A stretch of DNA of 64,000 nucleotides from an uncultured Clostridium sp. (GTDB lineage Bacteria; Bacillota; Clostridia; TANB77; CAG-508). Shown here piece after piece: positions 1,767-55,928 of this stretch. The first letter of the stretch is position 1, and the number at the start of each line of letters is the position of its first letter. Under the pieces are notes generated by a model. That model saw nothing but the letters and a program-made list of their open reading frames with translations. It did not search any database and was not told the origin of the DNA. Made by a program: the position numbers and the translations under genes. The stretch lies in assembly GCA_902491155.1 (NCBI GenBank), contig CABUGH010000006.1, positions 2,805 through 66,804 on the forward strand, in the 5' to 3' direction.

Positions 1767-2867
1767 TTATTGAAATTTTGTTATGTCATCAATTTTAGCT
1801 GCAAAATATGGGTTATCTTTTCCTTCTTCTTTTAAGAATATTGCAAATGTATTATCAATGGCAAATTCTCTGCTTTCACCTGGCATTAATGCTGTTTTGC
1901 TTACCATCATTCCAGCTTCGCTTTTTATTTTTCCACCTTTTTTATCTAAATCAAACTGTATTGTTTGTAATGCTTTTTCTATCATATAGCTTTCACCATT
2001 AGAAAAGAAAAATGGTTCATTTTCAACTTCTGTTATTTCCTTTTTCTCATTTATTTTTATGTTAGGAATTTTTAACAGTTCTTTTTCTTCTAATTCTTTA
2101 CTTCCATCATAGCTTGATTCTTGTTGTTGTATATTTTGATATATTTCACTAAATGTGTTTCCATTTGGATTTTTGCAAAGGATTACTTCATCTTCTTGTT
2201 TAGTTTTTAATTTTATTGCAAAATCATCTTTTGAATTATAATATAAAACCTCCACTTGATTTCTTAATTCTTCACTTTCATTATTTTTTCTTATTCCAAA
2301 ATATTTTACATTTTCGTAATTACCAAATTGTCCATTTTCTAATTCTTCAAATTCTTTTTCAAATTGAAATTCTTTTTTTAACATTGCATATAAAAAATAA
2401 TCTTCTTTGCTTTTTTTATCCCAATCAAATTGATCTAATATGTCACTTGTTTCATTAAATTTTTCCTTTATTGCTTTTTCTATTTCTTCTTTTAATTGTA
2501 CTGATGGTGTTCCTACTTTTTTATAATAGTATTGTTCTGCTATATCTTTTGTTGTAAATGTTTCTTCATTTAAATTTTTTACTATTTGTTTTTGTGGAGT
2601 AAATGTTATGTCTTGTTTAGCTAAATCATTTTTTAAGTCATTCCATATTAATTGAAATGTACCACACCATATTGTATTATTTTGTATCTCATCTTTTAAT
2701 GTTAATGCTGTTTTTATTTCATTGTTGCTATTAAATGTGTGTTCTTTTGAACTTTCTTTTCCTTCCTCACTTTGCTCTTTATTGTTTACCGCAAATACTA
2801 TTCCACAAATTATTATTGCTAATATTAATATTCCACCTACTATTTTTATTGTTTTTTTCATAAGCAT
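1767..2867 (-). CDS. Membrane-anchored serpin-like protein (distant)
   Basis: N-terminal TM segment (IVGGILILAIIICGIVFAV). The C-terminus, DKKGGKIKSEAGMMVSKTALMPGESREFAIDNTFAIFLKEEGKDNPYFAAKIDDI, follows the serpin hinge/RCL/F.vD.PF.F.I pattern. The N-terminal part is not classically serpin-like. Confidence 0.4.
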   Translation of the reverse strand: MLMKKTIKIVGGILILAIIICGIVFAVNNKEQSEEGKESSKEHTFNSNNEIKTALTLKDEIQNNTIWCGTFQLIWNDLKNDLAKQDITFTPQKQIVKNLNEETFTTKDIAEQYYYKKVGTPSVQLKEEIEKAIKEKFNETSDILDQFDWDKKSKEDYFLYAMLKKEFQFEKEFEELENGQFGNYENVKYFGIRKNNESEELRNQVEVLYYNSKDDFAIKLKTKQEDEVILCKNPNGNTFSEIYQNIQQQESSYDGSKELEEKELLKIPNIKINEKKEITEVENEPFFFSNGESYMIEKALQTIQFDLDKKGGKIKSEAGMMVSKTALMPGESREFAIDNTFAIFLKEEGKDNPYFAAKIDDITKFQ

Positions 2868-3175
2868 TCCACCTTTCTTTTATTTATATATGAAACATCT
2901 AATGTTATTATATTTTTTCTTAAATTAGTGTAAGATTCCTCTAACTCTTTTTTGATTGGAAAGTTTTTATATTCTTCTTCTATTTGGTTTATTTTTTATT
3001 TCCTCTTCTTACTAAATTTTACCTATATTCTAACATATTATGCAAAAAAAATAAAGTAATTTGTTTGAATTTACAAAAAATAGAGTAGTTTTTACAAGTA
3101 TTTTATACTTATATTAACCACTCTATTTTATATTCTATGAAAGTTCTCCAAACTTCCTAAAATATAAAAAATAAC

Positions 3176-3281
3176 CATGCACAGAAATTTTCAAAGCAAA
3201 TTTCGCGCGTGAACAAAGACGCGGACTTTATAAAATGTTCTAATAAATGCTAATGTTATTAATGTCCGCTTTTGCTCTAAT
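3176..3281. repeat. Dispersed intergenic repeat, copy A
   Basis: About 75% identical by eye to the reverse complement of 52036-52126. Shared blocks are gcaca.aaatt, caaatttc, acgaacaaagac and attaatgtccgcttttg. A shorter third copy is at 59950-59980. Confidence 0.6.
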
Positions 3282-14494: not shown

Positions 14495-15175
14495 TTACAA
14501 ATTTTCTAATGCTTTTTTTGCTGCTGACATTTCGGCTAATTTTTTGCTTTTTCCTTTTCCTTTAGCTAATTCTTTTCCGTTTAATTCTACTTCAGCTTCA
14601 AATGTTTTGTTATGGTCTGGCCCTGTTTCTTTTATTATTTTATATGTGATTTTTACATTTCCATGTTCTTGTAATTTTTCTTGTAACATGGTTTTATAGT
14701 CTTTTTCCCCCACATGTTGTGTTGCTATTGCAATTTCGTCTTTTAAATTTTCTATAATGAATTTGCATGCTGGTTCTAATCCACCATCTAAATATATTGC
14801 TGCTATTACAGCCTCTACACTATCTGCTAATATTGCTGGCTTTTCATTTCCTTTAGACTGTTGCTCTGATTTTCCTATATATAGATATTCACTAAATTTG
14901 TGTTGTTTTGCTATTTTATATAAACTTGCTTCACATACCACTGTTGCTCTGACTTTAGTCATTTCTCCTTCTCTTAACTTTGAGTAATTTTTATATATAT
15001 ACTGACTTGATACAAATTCTAAAATACTGTCTCCTAAAAACTCTAATTTTTCGTTGCTTTCTATATTGTGGTCATATGCATATGATGTATGTGTTAATGC
15101 TGTTTTTAATAGTTCTAAATTTTTAAATTTGTATTGTATGTTTTTTTGCATTTTTTCTAATTCTTGATTATTCAT
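14495..15175 (-). CDS. rnc: Ribonuclease III
   Basis: RNase III signature NEKLEFLGDSILEFV and a C-terminal dsRBD (GPDHNKTFEAEVELNGK…GKGKSKKLAEMSAAKKAL). Confidence 0.9.
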   Translation of the reverse strand: MNNQELEKMQKNIQYKFKNLELLKTALTHTSYAYDHNIESNEKLEFLGDSILEFVSSQYIYKNYSKLREGEMTKVRATVVCEASLYKIAKQHKFSEYLYIGKSEQQSKGNEKPAILADSVEAVIAAIYLDGGLEPACKFIIENLKDEIAIATQHVGEKDYKTMLQEKLQEHGNVKITYKIIKETGPDHNKTFEAEVELNGKELAKGKGKSKKLAEMSAAKKALENL

Positions 15176-15312: not shown

Positions 15313-16701
15313 ATGTCTAATAAAAATGGCTATTTTGACACAGATAATCGTCAATTAACTGATGTTTTTAGAGAATTGCAACAAACACGTTTACAATACG
15401 AATCTCAGAATGCTAAGAATGCTAAAAAGTCATATTCTTCTACTGCTAAAAATCATAATAATATAAAGCGTCAAAAATTTTCTAATAGCACCAATAAAAC
15501 TTTTCGCATTTCACTTATTTTTATACTTTTGGTTATAGCGGTAATTGTTGCTTTATTGGGATCAAATTCGATATCTGCCAAAGATCCTTCTATAGAGTTA
15601 TATTCTCCTTTATCGGAAATTGGTAAATCAAATGTTTCTATAGAGATTAATCGCCATCGTTTAAATGCTCATAATATTATTACTTCAAATGCTGCTTTAG
15701 AGACTGTTAAAGAGCAAGTTACTGAAGAACGTGATATTCCTTTTGAAACTTTATATACTGAAAGGAATCTATTGCCTAAGGGTGAAGAAGTTGTTTTACA
15801 GCAAGGTGTTAATGGTAAAAAAAATGTAACCCTTGTTCGTTCTTATGATAATGGTGAGTTAACTGCAGAAGATATTATTCAAGAAGAAAAAACTAAAGAT
15901 TATGTTCCTCAAATTGTTGATGTTGGAACCTCTGAATTTTTGGCTAAAATTAAGGCTCATTTGAAAGATACTTTATATTTAACTAAAGATACTGTTTTAC
16001 GTGATGGTATGTCAGATACTTCTAACCAAGTTGCTGAAATAAAAAATTATTTTGATGTTGTCCTTTTGGATTTACCTAGTGAAGATTGGTGTAAAGTTTC
16101 TTATGATGGTGTAGAAGGTTATTTGCCTACTAAAAACTTAACTTCTGCTGTTGTATCTCCTACTATGCCAGAAAAAAATCGTATTCAAAAAATAGTTATA
16201 AAGCTTGATAAAGATATGCCTTTAAATCAATCATCTGGTTTAACTTTGGCTGATTATAAAAAAATATTTACTGGTCTTCCAAGTGATACAAATAATATTT
16301 TTGCTGATAATTATGAGACTTTTTATAATATTGATACAAAATATAAAATTAATGGTATCTTTTTAGCATCTTTGGGTATTCATGAAAGTGCTTGGGGTAC
16401 TTCTCAAATTGCTAAAGAAAAGAAAAATCTATTTGGATATGGTTCTTATGATGCTACACCTTATGAATCTTCTTATTCTTTTGATAATTATAAAGATGGT
16501 ATTGAATTAGTCGCAAAAGTTATGGTTAAGTATTACATTAACCCTGTTGGTACAAACATTTACGATAATGAGAAAGCTTTGGCTACATATTATAATGGTC
16601 CTACTATTGCTGATGTCAATATTCGCTATGCTAGTGATGAAAATTGGCATGAAAAAGTATATAGTTATATGGAAATGTTATATAATCGTTTAGAAAAATA
16701 A
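15313..16701 (+). CDS. Cell-wall hydrolase: TM anchor + G5 domain + SH3-like + N-acetylglucosaminidase (GH73-type) domain
   Basis: G5-like block IPFETLYTERNLLPKGEEVVLQQGVNGKKNVTLVRSYDNGEL. SH3-like block WCKVSYDGVEGYLPTKNL. Glucosaminidase block INGIFLASLGIHESAWGTSQIAKEKKNLFGYG. Confidence 0.75.
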   Translation: MSNKNGYFDTDNRQLTDVFRELQQTRLQYESQNAKNAKKSYSSTAKNHNNIKRQKFSNSTNKTFRISLIFILLVIAVIVALLGSNSISAKDPSIELYSPLSEIGKSNVSIEINRHRLNAHNIITSNAALETVKEQVTEERDIPFETLYTERNLLPKGEEVVLQQGVNGKKNVTLVRSYDNGELTAEDIIQEEKTKDYVPQIVDVGTSEFLAKIKAHLKDTLYLTKDTVLRDGMSDTSNQVAEIKNYFDVVLLDLPSEDWCKVSYDGVEGYLPTKNLTSAVVSPTMPEKNRIQKIVIKLDKDMPLNQSSGLTLADYKKIFTGLPSDTNNIFADNYETFYNIDTKYKINGIFLASLGIHESAWGTSQIAKEKKNLFGYGSYDATPYESSYSFDNYKDGIELVAKVMVKYYINPVGTNIYDNEKALATYYNGPTIADVNIRYASDENWHEKVYSYMEMLYNRLEK

Positions 16702-16757
16702 TAATTTAAAATTCTAGGAATTTGCTTTCCTAGAATTTTAAAAATAGGAGGAATACA

Positions 16758-17603
16758 ATGAATTTTCCATTTAAAATTAGTGTTAAACATTCAAGAATCT
16801 TATTGGCAATATTAATTATATTGTTATTGCTTTGCATTTTTGCTTATTCTTATATTTTTTATGCTAGTTATTCAAGAAATGAATTTATTAATCAATCTTT
16901 AAAAATTTCAGAGCAAAATCAGCTCTCTGTTTTTAAGATTAGTAAAATTTTGTTGTATAGTAGTGCTAGTGCTATTAATAATCGTTCTGATAATTCTTTG
17001 GAAGATTTAAATATTTGTCAGTATACAGATATTGCTATTTATATTGATAATACTTCCTCTATTTCTGATTTAACAACGCAAAATACTGTTAAGGAAATGT
17101 GGATTGATAATATTAAGGTTACTCCAAAAAGTGAGCTAGGTTCTTGTGTTTTAAATTATAAAAATTTAAATAATTTTGGTAAATTTGAAAATTTACAACC
17201 TGCTTCTGACTCACGTATAGATTTTAATATTGTGAATACTAATGAACAAAATGAGTCTACTGATTATGAAACGCCAACTTTTTATACTGATTGTTCTAAT
17301 CCTATTTCTTTAGGGTATTTGAATTCTGGAATTGTTAAAAATTATTCTATTCATGACAATGTTAATTCTGTTGCTTTAAATGGAAAGATTTTGCAACAGT
17401 CTGGTGTTGATTTAGCTCAAATTAGTTATAATTTGACTTTTGATATTCATATTAAAAATTATGATGATGATTCTTTTGTTTATCATTCTAATATGGACGT
17501 AAATTTGGATACTGATAATAAGGATATCTATAATGGTTATTTATATCAAACTAAAAATAATAATTCTGATAATGAATATATTTTCTTTAAAGAAGTTCAA
17601 TAG
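16758..17603 (+). CDS. Hypothetical membrane-anchored protein
   Basis: 281 aa with AGGAGG 7 nt upstream and one N-terminal TM (ILLAILIILLLLCIFAYSYIFYA). No recognisable motif. Confidence 0.5.
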   Translation: MNFPFKISVKHSRILLAILIILLLLCIFAYSYIFYASYSRNEFINQSLKISEQNQLSVFKISKILLYSSASAINNRSDNSLEDLNICQYTDIAIYIDNTSSISDLTTQNTVKEMWIDNIKVTPKSELGSCVLNYKNLNNFGKFENLQPASDSRIDFNIVNTNEQNESTDYETPTFYTDCSNPISLGYLNSGIVKNYSIHDNVNSVALNGKILQQSGVDLAQISYNLTFDIHIKNYDDDSFVYHSNMDVNLDTDNKDIYNGYLYQTKNNNSDNEYIFFKEVQ

Positions 17604-17608
17604 ATTAA

Positions 17609-17647
17609 ACGAGAAAACATTGATGTCTCAATGTTTTCTCGTTTTTT
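17609..17647 (+). terminator. Rho-independent terminator
   Basis: 14-bp stem ACGAGAAAACATTG / CAATGTTTTCTCGT, 6-nt loop, then T5. Confidence 0.8.
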
Positions 17648-17912
17648 ACAAACCTAGATAAAAAATATGAAAATTCTAATTATGGTATTACTTTTTATAT
17701 CCTTCATCTTTATCATATCATAAATATTCATTAACAGATGATATGGTTGAATCTTTTAGTGATAATAATGGAAATGAAATTGTAGTTTCTGTGTTTAATA
17801 ATGATACTATTGAAAATATTATCGATTTTGAAAAAAATAAAGATATGCCTGATGGTACAAAAATTGTACTAGATATAAAAAATGAAGGATATGTTACATT
17901 AACTATAAAATA

Positions 17913-17963
17913 ATTATGTATATAACACTTAATAAGACAATGTTTATATTTATTGAAATTATA
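17913..17963. repeat. Partial duplicate of the small-toxin coding sequence (paired with 18119-18169)
   Basis: About 46 of 50 nt identical to 18119-18169. On the minus strand it reads MNFYIISININIVLLSVIYIIIL* but has no RBS, so it is probably a decayed copy. Confidence 0.6.
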
Positions 17964-17973
17964 TAAAAATTCA

Positions 17974-18003
17974 TTGACAAATAATTTAATTAGGGTGTAT
18001 AAT
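17974..18003 (+). promoter_or_regulatory. Near-consensus sigma-A promoter
   Basis: TTGACA (17974-17979), 18-nt spacer, TATAAT (17998-18003). Confidence 0.7.
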
Positions 18004-18009
18004 ATAGAT

Positions 18010-18098
18010 AGAAAATGAGAACACAAATAATGTGTGTTACCTAAAAAATTTTAAGTATACACCACTAGCTCTGCGAAAGCGTATGTGGTGTATTTTTT
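18010..18098 (+). ncRNA. Candidate small RNA (putative type I antitoxin)
   Basis: Bounded by the promoter above and a terminator. The terminator stem is TACACCAC (18058-65) / GTGGTGTA (18085-92) with an inner GC-GAAA-GC tetraloop, followed by T6 (18093-98). The only internal ORF is 9 codons with no RBS. The 3' ~50 nt are antisense to the 3' end of the convergent 35-aa ORF. Confidence 0.5.
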
Positions 18099-18204
18099 AT
18101 TGTTGCTTATTTGATAGTATTATGTATATAACACTTAATAAGGCAACGTTTATAGTTATTGAAATCATAAATCCTATTATTAAGAACATTAAAAAATCTA
18201 ACAT
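18097..18204 (-). CDS. 35-aa hydrophobic peptide, candidate type I toxin
   Basis: MLDFLMFLIIGFMISITINVALLSVIYIILSNKQQ*. Strong RBS GGAGGTGG 7 nt upstream of the ATG. One TM helix plus a polar tail. The stop codon abuts the shared hairpin. It is below the 60-aa cutoff of the ORF track. Confidence 0.5.
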   Translation of the reverse strand: MLDFLMFLIIGFMISITINVALLSVIYIILSNKQQ

Positions 18205-18371
18205 ATAAACACCACCTCCAATCTCTCAACTATTGTTGAGGAATTAAAGGTAACACCCACATCTGCTTTTATCTCACTTCCTCTGATAATATATTACAAT
18301 ATTTTTTTTGAAAGTAATAGCACATAGTAAAATTTTATAAATAATTATTTTTATATTTTTTAGTACCAAAA

Positions 18372-18415
18372 TATAAAAAAACGATAAAATGCTGAGATAC
18401 CAACGTTTTATCGTT
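18372..18415 (-). terminator. Terminator of the tRNA-Gly/tRNA-Cys transcript (bidirectional hairpin)
   Basis: 10-bp stem AACGATAAAA / TTTTATCGTT with T-runs on both sides. Confidence 0.65.
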
Positions 18416-18421
18416 TTTTAT

Positions 18422-18495
18422 TGGAGGCGACACCCGGAATCGAACCGGGGATCAGAGTTTTGCAGACTCGTGCCTTACCGCTTGGCTATATCGCC
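18422..18495 (-). tRNA. tRNA-Cys (GCA)
   Basis: The reverse complement GGCGATATAGCCAAGCGGTAAGGCACGAGTCTGCAAAACTCTGATCCCCGGTTCGATTCCGGGTGTCGCCTCCA folds as a cloverleaf. The anticodon loop is CTGCAAA. Confidence 0.9.
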
Positions 18496-18516
18496 ATATA
18501 TTATATTTATATAAAG

Positions 18517-18592
18517 TGGAGCGGGAAACGGGGCTCAAACCCGCGACCTCTGCCTTGGCAAGGCAGCGCTCTATCAACTGAGCTATTCCCGC
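18517..18592 (-). tRNA. tRNA-Gly (GCC)
   Basis: Reverse complement GCGGGAATAGCTCAGTTGATAGAGCGCTGCCTTGCCAAGGCAGAGGTCGCGGGTTTGAGCCCCGTTTCCCGCTCCA. The anticodon loop is TTGCCAA. Confidence 0.9.
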
Positions 18593-18620
18593 ATATATAC
18601 CTTTTCTTGGTACGTTTATT

Positions 18621-18649
18621 ATGATACCAAATTTTTTCTTTGTTGTCAA
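18621..18649 (-). promoter_or_regulatory. Sigma-A promoter for the tRNA-Gly/Cys operon
   Basis: Minus strand reads TTGACA (18649-18644), 17-nt spacer, TGgTATCAT (extended -10; hexamer at 18626-18621). Confidence 0.7.
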
Positions 18650-18669
18650 GGTATATATAAATGTTTTTT

Positions 18670-20157
18670 CTAATTTCCGATTGGTGTAAAATCATCAGTT
18701 GCAATTTTTACATTAGTATTAAAATCTAATACTTCTGTATCTAGCAAGTCTTTGTATTCCGAATATTTATTTTCATTGACTTCTGGATTTCCTTTTATTC
18801 CAACTAATATTAAGTTTTGATATTGAGTTTTGTCATCTGTTTTTACTGTATATATTTTTACATTATCAAATACTGCTTTATATGTTGCATATTCATATTT
18901 GGCAAACTTTGATTGTTCTCCTTCTAGTGATGATAATATATTTGTTATTACCATACCGTTTGAATTTAATCTTTCTTTAACTTTACACATTGCTTCATAT
19001 GTAGTTAATTCAAATGGTGCATTTAATCCTTTGAATGCATCTATTAAAATAGTATCATATTTTTCTTTACTATAATTTATGTAGCTTCTTCCATCTTGGT
19101 GATATATTTTCAAGTTTGTATTGTTTATATCTAAACCAAATTCTTGTGTTGCTAAATCTGTCATAGTATTATCTATTTCTACTACGTCTATTTGTTTTCC
19201 TACGTATTTTTCCAAATAATGCCTGGGATATGTGTATGCTGCTCCACCTATTATTAAAGTTTTGTTTGCATCTTTATTGTTATAGTCAAATAAATCATAG
19301 TATTTTAAGTATTGTGCACCCATCTCTCCCGTCTCTTGGTTTATGTATGATTCTAACCCTGTATCAACTTGTAGTGTTTTATATTCACCATTTTGGTTTT
19401 TTATATCTTTTACCCATATTCTACTATATTCCGAGTCGACATCTTTTATGATTTCTTTATGTTCTTTTTTGAATAAATTTTTTCCAAATATATATGCAAA
19501 TATTATTAATACTAATATTCCAACTATTTTGATAAAATATTTTTTATTTTTATTAGGATATAGTATAATTGATAAGAAATATAGTATTATGCTGCTACCT
19601 AAAATTATGTTTCTTACCCCTATATTTGGTATTAATATAAAACCCGCTATAAAAGTGCCTATGATACTTCCTATTGTTGATAAAGATGATATTTTTCCTG
19701 ATACTTTTCCTACTTCTTTTTCCTCATCATTTTTTAATCTTACAGCTATTGGTGATGCCGTCGCTAACATAAAACTTGGTATTCCAAATAAAAACATTGC
19801 TGATATGATTGCTACAGTGATTAAACTTGGTATTGTCTCAGCTAATTGGTTTACTATTATTGTTTCGAATATTGATATAAAACTAGTACTTATAGCTGAA
19901 ATTAATATAAATTGTGATAAATCTTTTAGATCTTTATTTTTATCTGCTATTTTTCCTCCTACCCAATATCCTAAACTCATGCTTATAAGCATGATACCTA
20001 TTATTGTTGTCCAAATGAGATTAGAGCTTCCCACATATGGAGATAATACTCTTGCAGCTACTAGCTCTAATACCATTCCCATTGCACCACATATAAAGAC
20101 AGTTAATTCTAGTTTATAATTTTTTATTTTTTTTATTTTTTCCATTCTTACCGCCAT
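18670..20157 (-). CDS. Fused membrane (MFS-like) / spermidine synthase-like aminopropyltransferase
   Basis: About 220 aa of polytopic N-terminus, then a methyltransferase-fold domain (LIIGGAAYTYPRHY…VVEIDNTMTDLA…ILIDAF) typical of fused MFS/spermidine synthase proteins. Confidence 0.7.
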   Translation of the reverse strand: MAVRMEKIKKIKNYKLELTVFICGAMGMVLELVAARVLSPYVGSSNLIWTTIIGIMLISMSLGYWVGGKIADKNKDLKDLSQFILISAISTSFISIFETIIVNQLAETIPSLITVAIISAMFLFGIPSFMLATASPIAVRLKNDEEKEVGKVSGKISSLSTIGSIIGTFIAGFILIPNIGVRNIILGSSIILYFLSIILYPNKNKKYFIKIVGILVLIIFAYIFGKNLFKKEHKEIIKDVDSEYSRIWVKDIKNQNGEYKTLQVDTGLESYINQETGEMGAQYLKYYDLFDYNNKDANKTLIIGGAAYTYPRHYLEKYVGKQIDVVEIDNTMTDLATQEFGLDINNTNLKIYHQDGRSYINYSKEKYDTILIDAFKGLNAPFELTTYEAMCKVKERLNSNGMVITNILSSLEGEQSKFAKYEYATYKAVFDNVKIYTVKTDDKTQYQNLILVGIKGNPEVNENKYSEYKDLLDTEVLDFNTNVKIATDDFTPIGN

Positions 20158-25050: not shown

Positions 25051-25587
25051 CTATTTTGACATTATTTTTCCTACTGCATGTACTATTTGGGTTGATTTTT
25101 TATTTGCTATTTCTTTACCTATTGCTTTTCCACCTACTGTTAGTGCTGATACCAATGCACTTAGCAAGAATTGCAAGTTAAAATTCAAGCTAAATTGATT
25201 TGTTATTTTGACTGCTATTAATGCACTTATTGCTCCGCTTAATACACCACAAATATCCCCAATAACATCTGCACATATGTTGGCCACCTTTGATGCATTT
25301 TTTATTAATTTTATTGAATTTTTTGATCCTTTGATTTTTTTGGTTGCTTTTGCGTGAAACTCTTCTTCGTTAGCTACAGTAACTGCTACACCAATTATAT
25401 CGAACAAAATACCTATTGCTATTACTAATATTAATATTAAGCATGCTGGTATTAAACTTAGATTTGATACTCCATTTGTTGATACATAAGAAAATATGAT
25501 TGACAATATAAATGTCATTGTAAATACTTGAATGAACCATTTTAATGTTGAGTTTTCCGAGTGTTCCTCTTTTTTATTTTTTTCCAT
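25051..25587 (-). CDS. Small 4-TM membrane protein, OapA-like (OLE-associated protein A candidate)
   Basis: 178 aa with four predicted TM segments and internally repeated motifs LFDIIGVAV and ADVIGDICGV (DxxxD). It lies directly downstream of, and co-oriented with, the large ORF-free structured region. The identification is from remembered OapA properties, not an alignment. Confidence 0.45.
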   Translation of the reverse strand: MEKNKKEEHSENSTLKWFIQVFTMTFILSIIFSYVSTNGVSNLSLIPACLILILVIAIGILFDIIGVAVTVANEEEFHAKATKKIKGSKNSIKLIKNASKVANICADVIGDICGVLSGAISALIAVKITNQFSLNFNLQFLLSALVSALTVGGKAIGKEIANKKSTQIVHAVGKIMSK

Positions 25588-25599
25588 TATTATTTTGCT

Positions 25600-26205
25600 C
25601 CTTTTAAATGTTTTTTATTTGCATTTGTTTTTGATAGTTTTTGATGGTAAAAGTCTAAGTAAATTTTACAGTTTAGGTCTGGTTGAATTTCTCTACCTCC
25701 CGCTTGACATTACTGTCTTAGCCGTTTCCGTTTAAGGGATGCATCTATTTTTACATAGACACCAGATCGCCACTTAAATCTGTACCTTAATCCCTAGACT
25801 TTCATGCTAGTGATAGCAAACATCCTAGAAGTTTTCCTTAACATACAAACCTGTTTTACTAGTCTTTTTTGCAAATATGGTTTCATAATATTGATTATTT
25901 ATGTTTGGCCAAAACGTAAATATCATTTAGAAAATTAATCCCCACACATTCACTCGAGACAGGCTACTCTATGTATTTTGTGTCTTGGCACTCACCATAG
26001 GTTATACTTAAATTCTTCTATTTAAGCCTCCGCGAAAATAGGGAGTCTTATGTATGCCGTTACATAATACCCTAGATTCTTTACTCCCTATACTCACACA
26101 AAACTGGCATTTCGCGCAAATACAAGAAACTTCAACGATGTGCCCTTTAGTGGATTTTTAGCCCCACCCTCGTAGAACATTGTATGACTAGAATAATGCA
26201 CCATC
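25600..26205 (-). ncRNA. Large structured noncoding RNA candidate (OLE-RNA-like by context)
   Basis: About 600 nt with no ORF of 60 aa or more across most of its length on either strand (one + ORF overlaps only the 25600-25735 edge). G+C is about 35-40% against about 25% in flanking DNA. The minus sense has about 2:1 G over C (counted on five 60-nt lines). Nested hairpins include TAGGGAGT/ACTCCCTA (26039-46 / 26083-90) enclosing TTATGTA/TACATAA, and CTTAAAT/ATTTAAG (26007-13 / 26020-26). It has its own promoter upstream. Confidence 0.45.
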
Positions 26206-26212
26206 GATTAAT

Positions 26213-26241
26213 AGTATAACATTTTTTCAAAATTATTCCAA
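26213..26241 (-). promoter_or_regulatory. Sigma-A promoter with extended -10
   Basis: Minus strand reads TTGGAA (26241-26236), 17-nt spacer, TGtTATACT (hexamer at 26218-26213). Confidence 0.6.
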
Positions 26242-54223: not shown

Positions 54224-54358
54224 TTTCTTCTCCTTTCGTTGTTGTGTTTACATTTATTATATCATATTCTAATAATGAATTGTGTTACAACTATGTTTCA
54301 ATACTATTACACACAAATTACATTTTTGTTTAAATTTTGATTTTTTTATTTTTTAATA

Positions 54359-54387
54359 TTGACATTGCTCGCTTTTTGTGTTAATAT
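54359..54387 (+). promoter_or_regulatory. Sigma-A promoter for tRNA-Arg
   Basis: TTGACA (54359-64), 17-nt spacer, TAATAT (54382-87). Confidence 0.7.
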
Positions 54388-54406
54388 ATGTATTGTTCTA
54401 AGTTAT

Positions 54407-54483
54407 GGGTCAATAGCTCAGTTGGATAGAGCACACGCCTTCTAAGCGTGGGGTCGGGGGTTCGAACCCCTCTTGGCCCACCA
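54407..54483 (+). tRNA. tRNA-Arg (TCT)
   Basis: GGGTCAATAGCTCAGTTGGATAGAGCACACGCCTTCTAAGCGTGGGGTCGGGGGTTCGAACCCCTCTTGGCCCACCA. The anticodon loop is CTTCTAA and the acceptor stem has 7 bp. Confidence 0.9.
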
Positions 54484-54521
54484 ATAACAAATCTGTTCGA
54501 ATTAATAGAATAGATTGATAC

Positions 54522-54553
54522 AAATATCATTCAGAGATGGATGATATTTTTTT
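54522..54553 (+). terminator. Terminator after tRNA-Arg
   Basis: 9-bp stem AAATATCAT / ATGATATTT with a 10-nt loop and a T-run. Confidence 0.6.
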
Positions 54554-55010
54554 ATTGCAAAAATGTCATTCAAGAAAGAATGGTGTCTGTAATGAAGATA
54601 ATTAAACAAGAAATACAATTTTAGGAAAGATTAAATTATCAGAATTAGAAACGTATTTGAAAAGGATTTAATGGCGTTCATTCTATAAATTTTATTTTAG
54701 GAATATATTTGACATTTTATAATTATCTGTGTGTAAATATAGGAAATGAATAACCGCAGTGAATGCGGTTAACACTACATAAAAGTATAACAACACATTC
54801 GCATATTGGCATAGTGGAATGTGCTGTTATTTTTCTTCCTTATTTATAATTGAATTTACATATTTTATGTATAAAATCGTTAATAAGGTTACGTTTACTG
54901 TTGCTGATACCATTAAGGCATATATAAAAAAGTAGATTTGAGCTAAAGTCTTAACTCAAATCTATTTTTTTATATGAGACTTTTTTACACCCCCTTTTTA
55001 TATTTTAATT

Positions 55011-55928
55011 TTATAATTTATCTATATATTTCTTTTTTATTACATAAGATGAATGTACGTAAATTCCTAATGTAACACTTACATTTGAGTGACCTAAAAT
55101 TTCACTTAATGATTTTACATCCATTCCTACTCTTACGCATTTTGTTGCAAATGTGTGTCTTAGACAATGAAATTTTTTATATTTTATATTACACCTTCTT
55201 AAAAGTCTCCTATATGTGTATCTATATCCTAAAGGTTCAATTAGTCTATCTTCTCTTCCTGTTAATATAAAAGCTTCTTTTGAATATTTTTTTGATAACT
55301 CTCTTAAATTTTCATATAATATTTTAGCTAATGGTATTTCTCTAATTGATTTTTTGGTTTTTGGACTTGTTAAAATTATTTTAGTATCATTTTTATTAAC
55401 ATATATTCTTTGTACAGTGTGTGTTACTTTTATTGATTTATTTTCAAAGTCAATGTCGCGCCATCTTAGTGCACATATTTCTCCTATTCTCATTCCAGAA
55501 TACATACTTATTAATATTCCTATTTCGTTTAATCGATTTGATTTTAGAATATAATTTTCTATTTTCCTTCTTTCTTTTTCATTAAATACTTCTACTTCTT
55601 CTTCTGTTGCTAATGGTGTTGATATTAAATCTAATTTGAAGTCCATATCATATTTTCTTTCTGCATATTTTAATACTGATTTTAATACTATTGTTATATC
55701 TTTAATTGTTTTATTTGATAATTTTTTTTGCAACCTTTCTATATATCTATTTATGTCTTCATTTCTTAAATCTTGTAGCCTTTTTCCTCCAAAATCTTTT
55801 TTTATGTATCTATTGATTTTAAAACTGTAATTTGAATATGTTGATTCTTTAATCCTTAGCTTTTTATATGATAGCCATTCATCACATATTTGGTCAAATT
55901 TTTCTTTTTCTACGTTTAATTGTTTCAT
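55011..55928 (-). CDS. Tyrosine-type site-specific recombinase/integrase
   Basis: SGMRIGEICALRWRDI (Arg box), HCLRHTFATKC and LGHSNVSVTLGIYVH (H-x-x-R … H … Y). 305 aa. Confidence 0.85.
   Translation of the reverse strand: MKQLNVEKEKFDQICDEWLSYKKLRIKESTYSNYSFKINRYIKKDFGGKRLQDLRNEDINRYIERLQKKLSNKTIKDITIVLKSVLKYAERKYDMDFKLDLISTPLATEEEVEVFNEKERRKIENYILKSNRLNEIGILISMYSGMRIGEICALRWRDIDFENKSIKVTHTVQRIYVNKNDTKIILTSPKTKKSIREIPLAKILYENLRELSKKYSKEAFILTGREDRLIEPLGYRYTYRRLLRRCNIKYKKFHCLRHTFATKCVRVGMDVKSLSEILGHSNVSVTLGIYVHSSYVIKKKYIDKL

Follow-up and report, generated by a model that had tools for sequence, protein, structure and literature searches.

The subject of this study is a small two-gene unit in a 64,000-nucleotide stretch of DNA from an uncultured Clostridium sp. 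(GenBank assembly GCA_902491155.1, contig CABUGH010000006.1, positions 2,805 to 66,804), hereafter called the window, which is AT-rich (GC content about 27%). On the minus strand, downstream of tRNA-Gly and tRNA-Cys genes of the same strand and separated from them by their own terminator (18376-18419), lies a short open reading frame (ORF) for a hydrophobic peptide, and on the plus strand a convergent gene for a small RNA (sRNA) is predicted opposite the 3′ untranslated region (UTR) of the peptide mRNA (Table 1). We consider this unit to be probably a chromosomal cassette of the type I toxin-antitoxin class, from a family not described before and with RNA control of the bsrG/SR4 kind, and the words toxin and antitoxin are used below in that candidate sense. 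A type I locus had been proposed here by a first-pass annotation made from the sequence alone. Its peptide ORF and translation, the ribosome-binding site (Shine-Dalgarno sequence, SD) 7 nt before the ATG, the adjoining tRNAs and the partial duplicate of the coding sequence (CDS; 51 nt, 92% identity, 47/51) were all recovered, and the sequence-level predictions that follow from such a reading (a conserved frame, an antisense promoter, covarying hairpins and a structured SD) held up against relatives.

Table 1. Features of the intact cassette and of the decayed copies in the window (aa, amino acids)
Feature	Position	Strand	Remarks
Candidate toxin ORF, 35 aa	18204..18097	minus	ATG at 18204 to TAA; MLDFLMFLIIGFMISITINVALLSVIYIILSNKQQ*
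SD GGAGGTGG (as RNA GGAGGUGG)	18219-18212	minus	7 nt before ATG
Putative toxin promoter	18319..18291	minus	-10 TAATAT 18296-18291; -35 position TATTAC 18319-18314
Toxin 5′UTR, ~80 nt	18284..18205	minus	predicted folds
Panhandle 5′ arm	~18282-18272	minus	in 5′UTR
Anti-SD ACCUUUAAUU	18251-18242	minus	in 5′UTR
Inner hairpin CUCAAC-AAUA-GUUGAG	18240-18225	minus	in 5′UTR
Toxin 3′UTR	18096..18008	minus	fully complementary to sRNA; putative 3′ end
Hairpin H1	18093-18057	minus	in 3′UTR
AGGUAACACACA	18043-18032	minus	in 3′UTR; partner of 5′UTR GUGUUACCU
Hairpin H2	18038-18020	minus	in 3′UTR
U-rich tail CUCAUUUUCUAU	18019-18008	minus	3′ panhandle arm
Predicted antitoxin sRNA promoter	17974-18003	plus	TTGACA-18-TATAAT, 12/12
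Predicted antitoxin sRNA, ~90-95 nt	18008..18105	plus	start near 18010; covariance model 113.9 bits
sRNA stem-loop SL1	18020-18038	plus
sRNA terminator hairpin + U6	18057-18093	plus	T6 at 18093-18098; toxin stop codon 18097-18099
Dead fragment of second toxin gene, ~codons 12-28	17963..17913	minus	repeat of 18119-18169; abuts sRNA promoter
tRNA-Cys	18422-18495	minus
tRNA-Gly	18517-18592	minus
tRNA-Arg	54407-54483	plus	followed by decayed B-type cassette, then integrase gene
Second sRNA gene, subtype B, orphan/decaying	54709..54841	plus	aligned to intact B cassettes
Truncated B-type toxin remnant	54937..54827	minus	homology to intact genes from ~codon 7
Tyrosine integrase gene	55011-55928	minus	Phage_integrase E = 1.8e-26

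A family of short, predicted membrane peptides

The predicted product of the minus-strand ORF is a single hydrophobic helix (core residues 4-30) with a short polar tail, SNKQQ, and in this it has what characterizes type I toxins, namely a small size (below about 60 aa), a transmembrane (TM) segment and a polar or charged C-terminus. Relatives of the peptide, a search for which had been suggested in the first-pass annotation, were retrieved by two independent routes. A scan with an IUPAC DNA pattern derived from the ORF core, in which 32 nt of the CDS are fixed (codons 18-29), gave three matches in the window and 63 loci in species-representative genomes, all of them metagenome-assembled genomes titled uncultured Clostridia, Clostridium or Eubacteriales from human, rabbit, goat, chicken and mouse gut; the cassette also occurs on further metagenome contigs beyond these loci. 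An exhaustive HMMER search of 1.84 billion representatives returned only 13 clusters at 50% identity, all of the same peptide family, which is thus small and taxonomically narrow. Several of these clusters are mis-called, with an N-terminal extension that is the translated conserved SD (..SEVVFM = GAGGTGGTGTTTATG). The DNA pattern had no match in viral contigs, and tblastn of the peptide found none in phage and plasmid collections, a search in which the low-complexity filter may mask hydrophobic peptides. The first-pass annotation had expected the peptide to escape routine gene calling, and this proved true of the source contig, the window being equal to a 136-kb JGI metagenome contig (sample 3300029587) in which the ORF is uncalled; elsewhere the expectation failed, as an exact-sequence lookup in a public collection shows the identical 35-aa peptide called as a gene in 344 blocks.

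At least three subtypes can be distinguished. Subtype A, the type of the intact window copy, has 35 aa, with variants that include MVNFLRFLILGF...NKEQ; subtype B has 37 aa (MGFILFLIYALMVSSTINVALLTILYIKYVNSKIDKE) and ends in the tail KYVNSKIDKE; and the third subtype is represented by MVDFLLFLIIGFMISVTINVALLTIIFVIWTNKE. The tail carries one Lys in A-type and three in B-type peptides. The reading frame, the SD (GAGGTGGTG), the ATG and the SD spacing are kept in the 55 unique cassettes obtained from the 63 genome loci, and frame, SD and ATG are kept likewise in the 13 HMMER clusters found independently of the DNA pattern. Peptides are 34, 35 or 37 aa long and differ by whole codons. The pooled ratio of nonsynonymous to synonymous changes (pN/pS) amounts to 0.32 over the 17 unique CDS of subtype A and to 0.65 over the 20 unique CDS of subtype B, both values, like the nucleotide conservation in codons 18-29, being biased by the 32 nt that the scan pattern fixes there; codon position 2 is the least variable. 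Loss of the frame in relatives, with synonymous and nonsynonymous changes equally frequent, had been named beforehand as the outcome that would speak against a peptide gene, and what was found is a frame that is kept and a pN/pS below 1.

In the peptide alignment L8, S15 and N19 are invariant and position 11 is small (G or A), so that (G/A)11-x3-S15-x3-N19, spaced at i, i+4 and i+8, forms one helical face. Small-xxx-small motifs and membrane-buried Asn residues favour the self-association of membrane helices. Searches of Pfam, NCBIfam, PHROGs and PDB with the peptide gave no family match, with only a chance-level match to Myc_target_1 in Pfam and NCBIfam at E up to 10; the HMMER clusters have no protein name in any source, and no paper containing the peptide strings turned up in a literature search.

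The predicted antisense RNA and the modelled folding of both transcripts

The plus-strand promoter, which had been picked out in the first-pass annotation, is the sole perfect TTGACA/TATAAT match in 17400-18800 and one of five in the 64-kb window. Among 59 unique cassettes it is perfect, with a spacer of 17 or 18 nt, in 49 and one mismatch off in the other ten, and the distance from the end of its -10 element to the toxin stop codon is always 91-99 nt. It is also present in divergent members (50-70% peptide identity) that were found without the DNA pattern, and the conservation of the cassette, which spans about 330 bp from the -35 of the minus-strand promoter to the -35 of the plus-strand promoter (ten contigs aligned), collapses immediately outside the antisense -35. 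The predicted sRNA consists of a single-stranded 5′ segment, AUAGAAAAUGAG, the stem-loop SL1, a weak middle hairpin and a terminator hairpin with U6. This last hairpin runs directly into T6 and touches the toxin stop codon, as had been noticed at first pass; the further claim that it bears U-tracts in both orientations had to be given up, as in the toxin sense about 10 nt separate it from the T-run. Over the family, the 8 nt after the hairpin contain on average 5.7 U in the sRNA sense versus 2.8 in the toxin sense. Because the U-run follows directly only in the plus sense, we read the hairpin as the sRNA terminator.

A covariance model built from 16 A-type sRNAs only has exactly two significant places in the window, 18008-18105 and 54739-54841, and 52 places in the relatives' loci; the second window place is a B-type sRNA (41.2 bits, E = 2.5e-5). 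Model-fitted sRNA alignments lean towards their model, and with this reservation 97.7% of the alignment cells pair, with a covariation of 0.319 versus 0.095 in shuffles, a value that none of 500 shuffles reached. A more diverse set of 17 sequences, which includes members from the protein search and hence independent of the DNA pattern, showed changes on both sides in 12 of 15 pairs and a covariation of 0.514 versus 0.144 (0/500 shuffles reach it; slid controls at most 0.108). RNAalifold predicted zero pairs for a mixed A and B alignment made with MAFFT, in which the arms were misaligned, and the covariance-model alignment was used instead. The single-sequence fold of the sRNA has z = -2.45. 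Rfam holds 13 families of type I antitoxin RNAs (PMC8594479), and a permissive cmscan of 16500-19500 against Rfam 15 (E up to 10) gave only tRNAs and chance-level matches, as did 54300-55100 (E up to 1); the whole window at gathering score contained no antitoxin family. The sequence thus predicts, as in type I systems, a separate antisense gene that is equipped with a promoter and a terminator of its own and whose RNA is complementary to the toxin mRNA; as far as sequence can tell, this gene is real.

The toxin promoter of the family is the weaker of the two, with TTGTTT or TTGATT-17-TAATAT or TATACT; 48 of the 59 unique cassettes match TTGnnn-N16-18-TAnnnT followed by ATAGRAA, and in an alignment of the window with L001-L010 the -35 of the relatives is TTGTTT at 17-nt spacing. 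The toxin mRNA likely ends after the second hairpin (18038-18020) and its U-rich tail, and would then run across the whole sRNA gene; the two RNAs would therefore overlap by about 95 nt at their 3′ ends, in place of the roughly 50 nt estimated at first pass.

The predicted 278-nt toxin transcript folds at -86 kcal/mol (z = -8.9 relative to dinucleotide shuffles). Its terminal segments of ~10 nt, AGGAAAUGAG at the 5′ end and CUCAUUUUCU at the 3′ end (alignment columns 25-34/310-319), form a panhandle in 51-53 of 55 independent single-sequence folds. The anti-SD (ACCUUUAAUU in A, CCACUGCACU in B) pairs with the SD around the inner hairpin in 29-30 of 32 minimum free energy (MFE) folds of A-type mRNAs, and the spacer between SD and AUG pairs with an invariant CDS stretch, AUAAACGUUGCCUUAUU, in 100% of cases, a pairing that is uninformative because it shows no variation. 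In a 55-sequence mRNA alignment 97.8% of cells pair and double-sided changes affect eight pairs, half of them in the panhandle and half in the inner hairpin, with a covariation of 0.211 versus 0.109 in shuffles (reached by 0/500; slid controls at most 0.056). The anti-SD segment has an alternative partner in the 3′UTR (GUGUUACCU/AGGUAACAC in A and GUUGCCACUGCA/UGUAGUGGUAAC in B), and in free B-type mRNA this long 5′-3′ duplex is the MFE fold in 22-23 of 23 sequences. When the 3′UTR was masked to mimic bound sRNA, 21 of 23 B-type mRNAs switched to the anti-SD:SD hairpin, and the modelled probability that the SD is unpaired fell from 0.30 to 0.18 in A and from 0.24 to 0.15 in B, a modest closing in which the SD is mostly paired in all modelled states (0.15-0.30). 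Sequestration of the SD by mRNA structure, as in type I toxin mRNAs, is thereby predicted by the models. Since the sRNA is antisense to the 3′ partner of the mRNA 5′ end, its own 5′ half resembles the toxin 5′UTR, and the first ~40 nt of sRNA and toxin mRNA are alignable in every subtype (z = 3-10) and change together.

Copies, decay and genomic setting

In 24 of 42 loci an A-type cassette follows tRNA-Gly-tRNA-Cys on the same strand at a distance of about 220 nt, with varying genes further out, and the 108-nt CDS is identical in ten contigs (L001-L010) whose flanks differ. B-type cassettes occupy varied sites, often near tRNAs. Some genomes carry two or more cassettes, and tandem arrays occur: in L001, after tRNA-Cys, a third-subtype cassette (MVDFLLFLIIGFMISVTINVALLTIIFVIWTNKE) at 2290-2660 is followed by an A-type one at 2850-3240, each with its own antisense promoter and with the same upstream segment, AATTATTTGTAAAATTTTACTATGTTCGCTTG, before both. 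The most divergent member (MIDYILFLFIGFLFSITLNITFISIILVILANKEK, 50% identity) lies within the fatty-acid synthesis (fab) operon between accB and fabZ in four separate metagenomes (L075-L078, ~1380-1730), in operon orientation and with all elements intact, its antisense -35 being 24 nt from the fabZ SD. One cassette copy adjoins a TnpV gene. The sequence AATTATTTGT is found at both ends of A-type cassettes, a possible target-site duplication, and is absent in B-type. On L083 (540-719) an sRNA is preceded by a toxin-type promoter region (TTCGCTTGCAA...TATAGT), not TTGACA-17-TATAAT, and the contig ends soon after. A weak match to the sRNA model on L030 (5478-5568, minus strand; 30.4 bits, E = 0.003), about 700 nt from the main cassette, may represent a further copy, either diverged or in tandem.

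All 62 intact toxins with enough flank (62/62) keep the antisense promoter, the apparent exception, L004, being an assembly gap of Ns. Beside broken toxins the antisense promoter is either kept (L016, L022, L029) or lost together with the toxin gene. A toxic product would be expected to leave such a pattern, in which the toxin is lost before the antitoxin and the antitoxin never by itself, and the pattern is indirect evidence for one. The window copies by themselves display all stages of decay: an intact A cassette, the 51-nt fragment at 17913-17963, which is without an SD, start or sRNA of its own, and a truncated B copy. In the last of these the sRNA has kept its TTGACA -35 and lost its TATAAT -10 to a 3-nt deletion, and the 3′ end of the integrase gene with its terminator replaces the promoter, 5′UTR, SD, start and first ~6 codons of the toxin gene. 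The segment 54407-55928 has the appearance of an integrated element's boundary, the element having either disrupted the cassette or recombined within it.

Four further observations concern the surroundings. The terminator hairpins at 17607-17647 (after a 281-aa ORF, 16758-17603) and 18376-18416 (after tRNA-Cys) form a pair of 41-nt inverted repeats with 80% complementarity and enclose both the cassette and a 56-aa ORF (17743-17913; no Pfam match); their likeness may be due to chance between two AT-rich terminators. At 3 kb from the cassette there is an RNase III gene (14495-15175, minus strand; Ribonucleas_3_3 E = 1.4e-39, with a dsrm domain), of relevance because RNase III cleaves toxin mRNA/antitoxin duplexes in bsrG/SR4. 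A full-length Ornate Large Extremophilic (OLE) RNA (Rfam RF01071, 342.7 bits, E = 5e-97) occupies 25628-26220 of the minus strand. Just downstream of it a 178-aa ORF (25051-25587) without Pfam match could encode an OLE-associated membrane protein.

Known systems, competing explanations and significance

The first-pass annotation had compared the locus with txpA/RatA and bsrG/SR4, and this comparison stands for the architecture, convergent genes overlapping at their 3′ ends, and falls for the sequence, in which neither Hol_Tox nor Rfam reveals a relationship. The closest parallel is with bsrG/SR4 of the B. subtilis prophage SPbeta: both encode a short hydrophobic peptide (38 aa in BsrG, 35-37 aa here) on an mRNA of similar size (about 294 nt for bsrG, about 275 nt predicted here), and in both a convergent antisense RNA with the stronger promoter is complementary to the mRNA 3′ end. 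Structure probing of bsrG mRNA showed that nt 1-35 pair with nt 232-262 in helix P1, which is opened when SR4 binds at the 3′ end; the SD helix then grows from 4 to 8 bp through a newly formed stem-loop. Decay by way of RNase III is likewise set off by SR4, whose promoter is stronger than that of the toxin (PMC3834814). The in silico counterparts here are the long helix between the mRNA 5′ and 3′ regions and the SD helix reinforced when the sRNA occupies the 3′ region. Differences are equally clear, in that the sRNA here, of about 95 nt, lies wholly inside the overlap whereas SR4 has about 180 nt with a non-complementary SL1, that the A-type tail has one Lys where BsrG has KKK, and that the hosts are uncultured gut Clostridia in which most copies lie outside recognisable prophage. 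Homology to BsrG, considered on account of the resemblance between LNTVLL and INVALL, was rejected: BsrG itself (control sequence from PMC4342826) matches PF16935 Hol_Tox with E = 1.8e-8, whereas four family peptides do not match that family at E up to 10, and hhalign of the family profile against BsrG gives a probability of 0.2%. The cassette is unrelated in sequence to bsrG/SR4 and absent from the libraries searched.

With txpA/RatA of the B. subtilis skin element, known also from Enterococcus, the cassette shares convergent genes, RNAs overlapping at their 3′ ends and a single-TM peptide, a Gram-positive layout described in T1TAdb (PMC8594479); in contrast, the sRNA here is without an Rfam 15 match and the peptide is shorter and not Hol_Tox. 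The C. difficile modules CD2517.1-RCd8, CD2907.1-RCd9, CD0956.2-RCd10 and others related to them resemble it in belonging to Clostridia, in their convergent overlapping genes and in their multiple copies per genome, their toxins being TM peptides of 34-59 aa present in several copies, some in mobile regions (PMC6563280). The lysine-rich tails, SigB promoters and CRISPR/prophage linkage of the C. difficile systems, compared by description only, are not seen here. Profiles of Fst/Ldr and the other type I toxin families in Pfam gave no match, and the family alignment contains no Pro and hence no Pro/Gly motif of the Fst type (Fst has APxxxG with a helix-kinking Pro). In hok/Sok (with its fbi element) and aapA1/IsoA1, pairing between the two ends locks the full-length toxin mRNA until 3′ processing makes it active, and the antisense RNA attaches to its 5′ region. 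Paired mRNA ends are thus common to these systems and to the panhandle here, which covaries, whereas the antisense RNA here covers the 3′ partner of the lock itself.

A mechanism modelled on bsrG/SR4 can be proposed. The weak minus-strand promoter would yield a highly structured ~275-nt mRNA for the single-helix membrane peptide, and the consensus plus-strand promoter a convergent ~95-nt sRNA that is perfectly complementary to the whole mRNA 3′UTR. Made in excess, the sRNA would pair with the toxin 3′UTR; RNase III would cut the long duplex, and the pairing would displace the mRNA 5′ end from the 3′UTR, so that the anti-SD of the 5′UTR could close on the SD and translation would also be blocked. 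Should the sRNA fall, the peptide would be made and inserted in the membrane, where it would probably self-associate via the conserved small-xxx-Ser-xxx-Asn face and arrest growth or damage the envelope. The sequence elements, their conservation and covariation, the predicted folds and the genomic behaviour are what the analysis establishes; transcription of both RNAs, the mRNA 3′ end, RNase III cleavage, the SD switch, membrane insertion and toxicity we infer.

Several observations weigh against this interpretation. The folding energy is more stable in the sRNA sense in only 11 of 36 cases, and Watson-Crick covariation cannot say which strand is structured; because neither gives the strand, the assignment of the sRNA to the plus strand rests on the promoter and the U-tract. 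Type I toxins typically have more strongly charged tails than the single-Lys tail of A-type peptides, the pN/pS values carry the bias of the scan pattern, and the near-invariance of A-type at one conserved site would also fit a useful housekeeping micro-protein. In the window itself the toxin -35 (TATTAC) and the first transcribed bases (AGAGGAAGUGAG) are off the family consensus (TTGTTT; AUAGGAAAUGAG), with the sRNA promoter still perfect; as its -35 has drifted, this copy may be poorly expressed, and toxin expression in this genome may be attenuated. The SD switch is advanced with caution because the modelled closing on sRNA binding is modest.

A chance origin of the cassette is unlikely in view of the family-wide conservation and the z of the mRNA fold. 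As an alternative to a toxin, the peptide could be harmless and serve the cell as a small membrane protein, for example as a subunit or regulator of a membrane complex, with the antisense RNA only tuning its expression. Its weakly charged tail, the conserved position after tRNA-Gly-Cys in 24/42 loci, the identity of the 108-nt CDS between differing flanks and the accB/fabZ copy of one subtype in four metagenomes all agree with such a role; decayed, truncated and tandem copies, however, are unexpected for an essential micro-protein, and a consensus-strength antisense promoter opposed to a weak sense promoter, a doubly sequestered SD (as predicted), an antisense promoter that is never absent beside an intact ORF while the ORF is often lost first, and a predicted RNA switch like that of bsrG/SR4 all speak against it. 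We accordingly regard a purely cellular role as unlikely.

Doubt may also be directed at either gene by itself. If no discrete plus-strand sRNA existed, the hairpins would be 3′UTR elements or terminators of the peptide mRNA and the promoter match a by-product of AT-rich DNA, of which a 1.4-kb region indeed holds 20 promoter-like matches versus 11 expected; the hairpins, moreover, fold equally well in the toxin sense. A by-product would hardly be perfect in 49/59 cassettes at a constant 91-99 nt from the stop, persist at 50-70% peptide identity, mark exactly (with its -35) where cassette conservation stops, and be retained with its RNA at broken-toxin loci, nor would a U-tract be expected to follow hairpin 1 directly in the plus sense only, and we find this explanation very improbable. 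That the ORF is untranslated, the locus being a non-coding RNA pair or a structured repeat element spread near tRNA genes, we hold to be scarcely credible: the peptide is indeed very short and without a protein family match, and RNA structure is strong across the whole unit, but three subtypes share the open frame, the ATG and the SD spacing, their indels comprise whole codons, pN/pS is below 1, and the helix-packing motif is conserved. A type I toxin-antitoxin cassette thus remains the reading that we favour.

How such a cassette arose is a more tentative matter. A possible, if somewhat doubtful, origin of the antitoxin gene is an inverted duplication of the toxin promoter and 5′UTR, giving an sRNA that mimics the mRNA 5′ end within a self-contained spreading cassette; the alignable and co-changing ~40-nt 5′ ends of both RNAs and the toxin-type promoter before the L083 sRNA fit this origin. 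If it is correct, the sRNA would compete with the mRNA 5′ end for the same 3′UTR partner and flip a three-way switch between the 5′UTR:3′UTR, 5′UTR anti-SD:SD and SD:CDS pairings, and a cassette of only 330 bp would spread without a transposase to tRNA-proximal sites, even inside an essential fab operon.

Experimentally validated type I toxin-antitoxin modules in Clostridia were limited to C. difficile in a 2019 review (PMC6563280). The family described here occurs only in uncultured, low-GC Clostridia from the guts of humans and animals and is invisible to Pfam, NCBIfam, PHROGs and Rfam, and its peptide and sRNA together could serve as an annotation model for gut metagenomes. The cassette is also a candidate for a compact RNA-controlled kill switch in anaerobic Firmicutes. 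Dozens of natural variants with compensatory changes map the structures of the toxin mRNA and the antitoxin without experiments, and they suggest that dual control of the bsrG/SR4 type, by decay and remote closure of the SD, may be more general than one Bacillus family.

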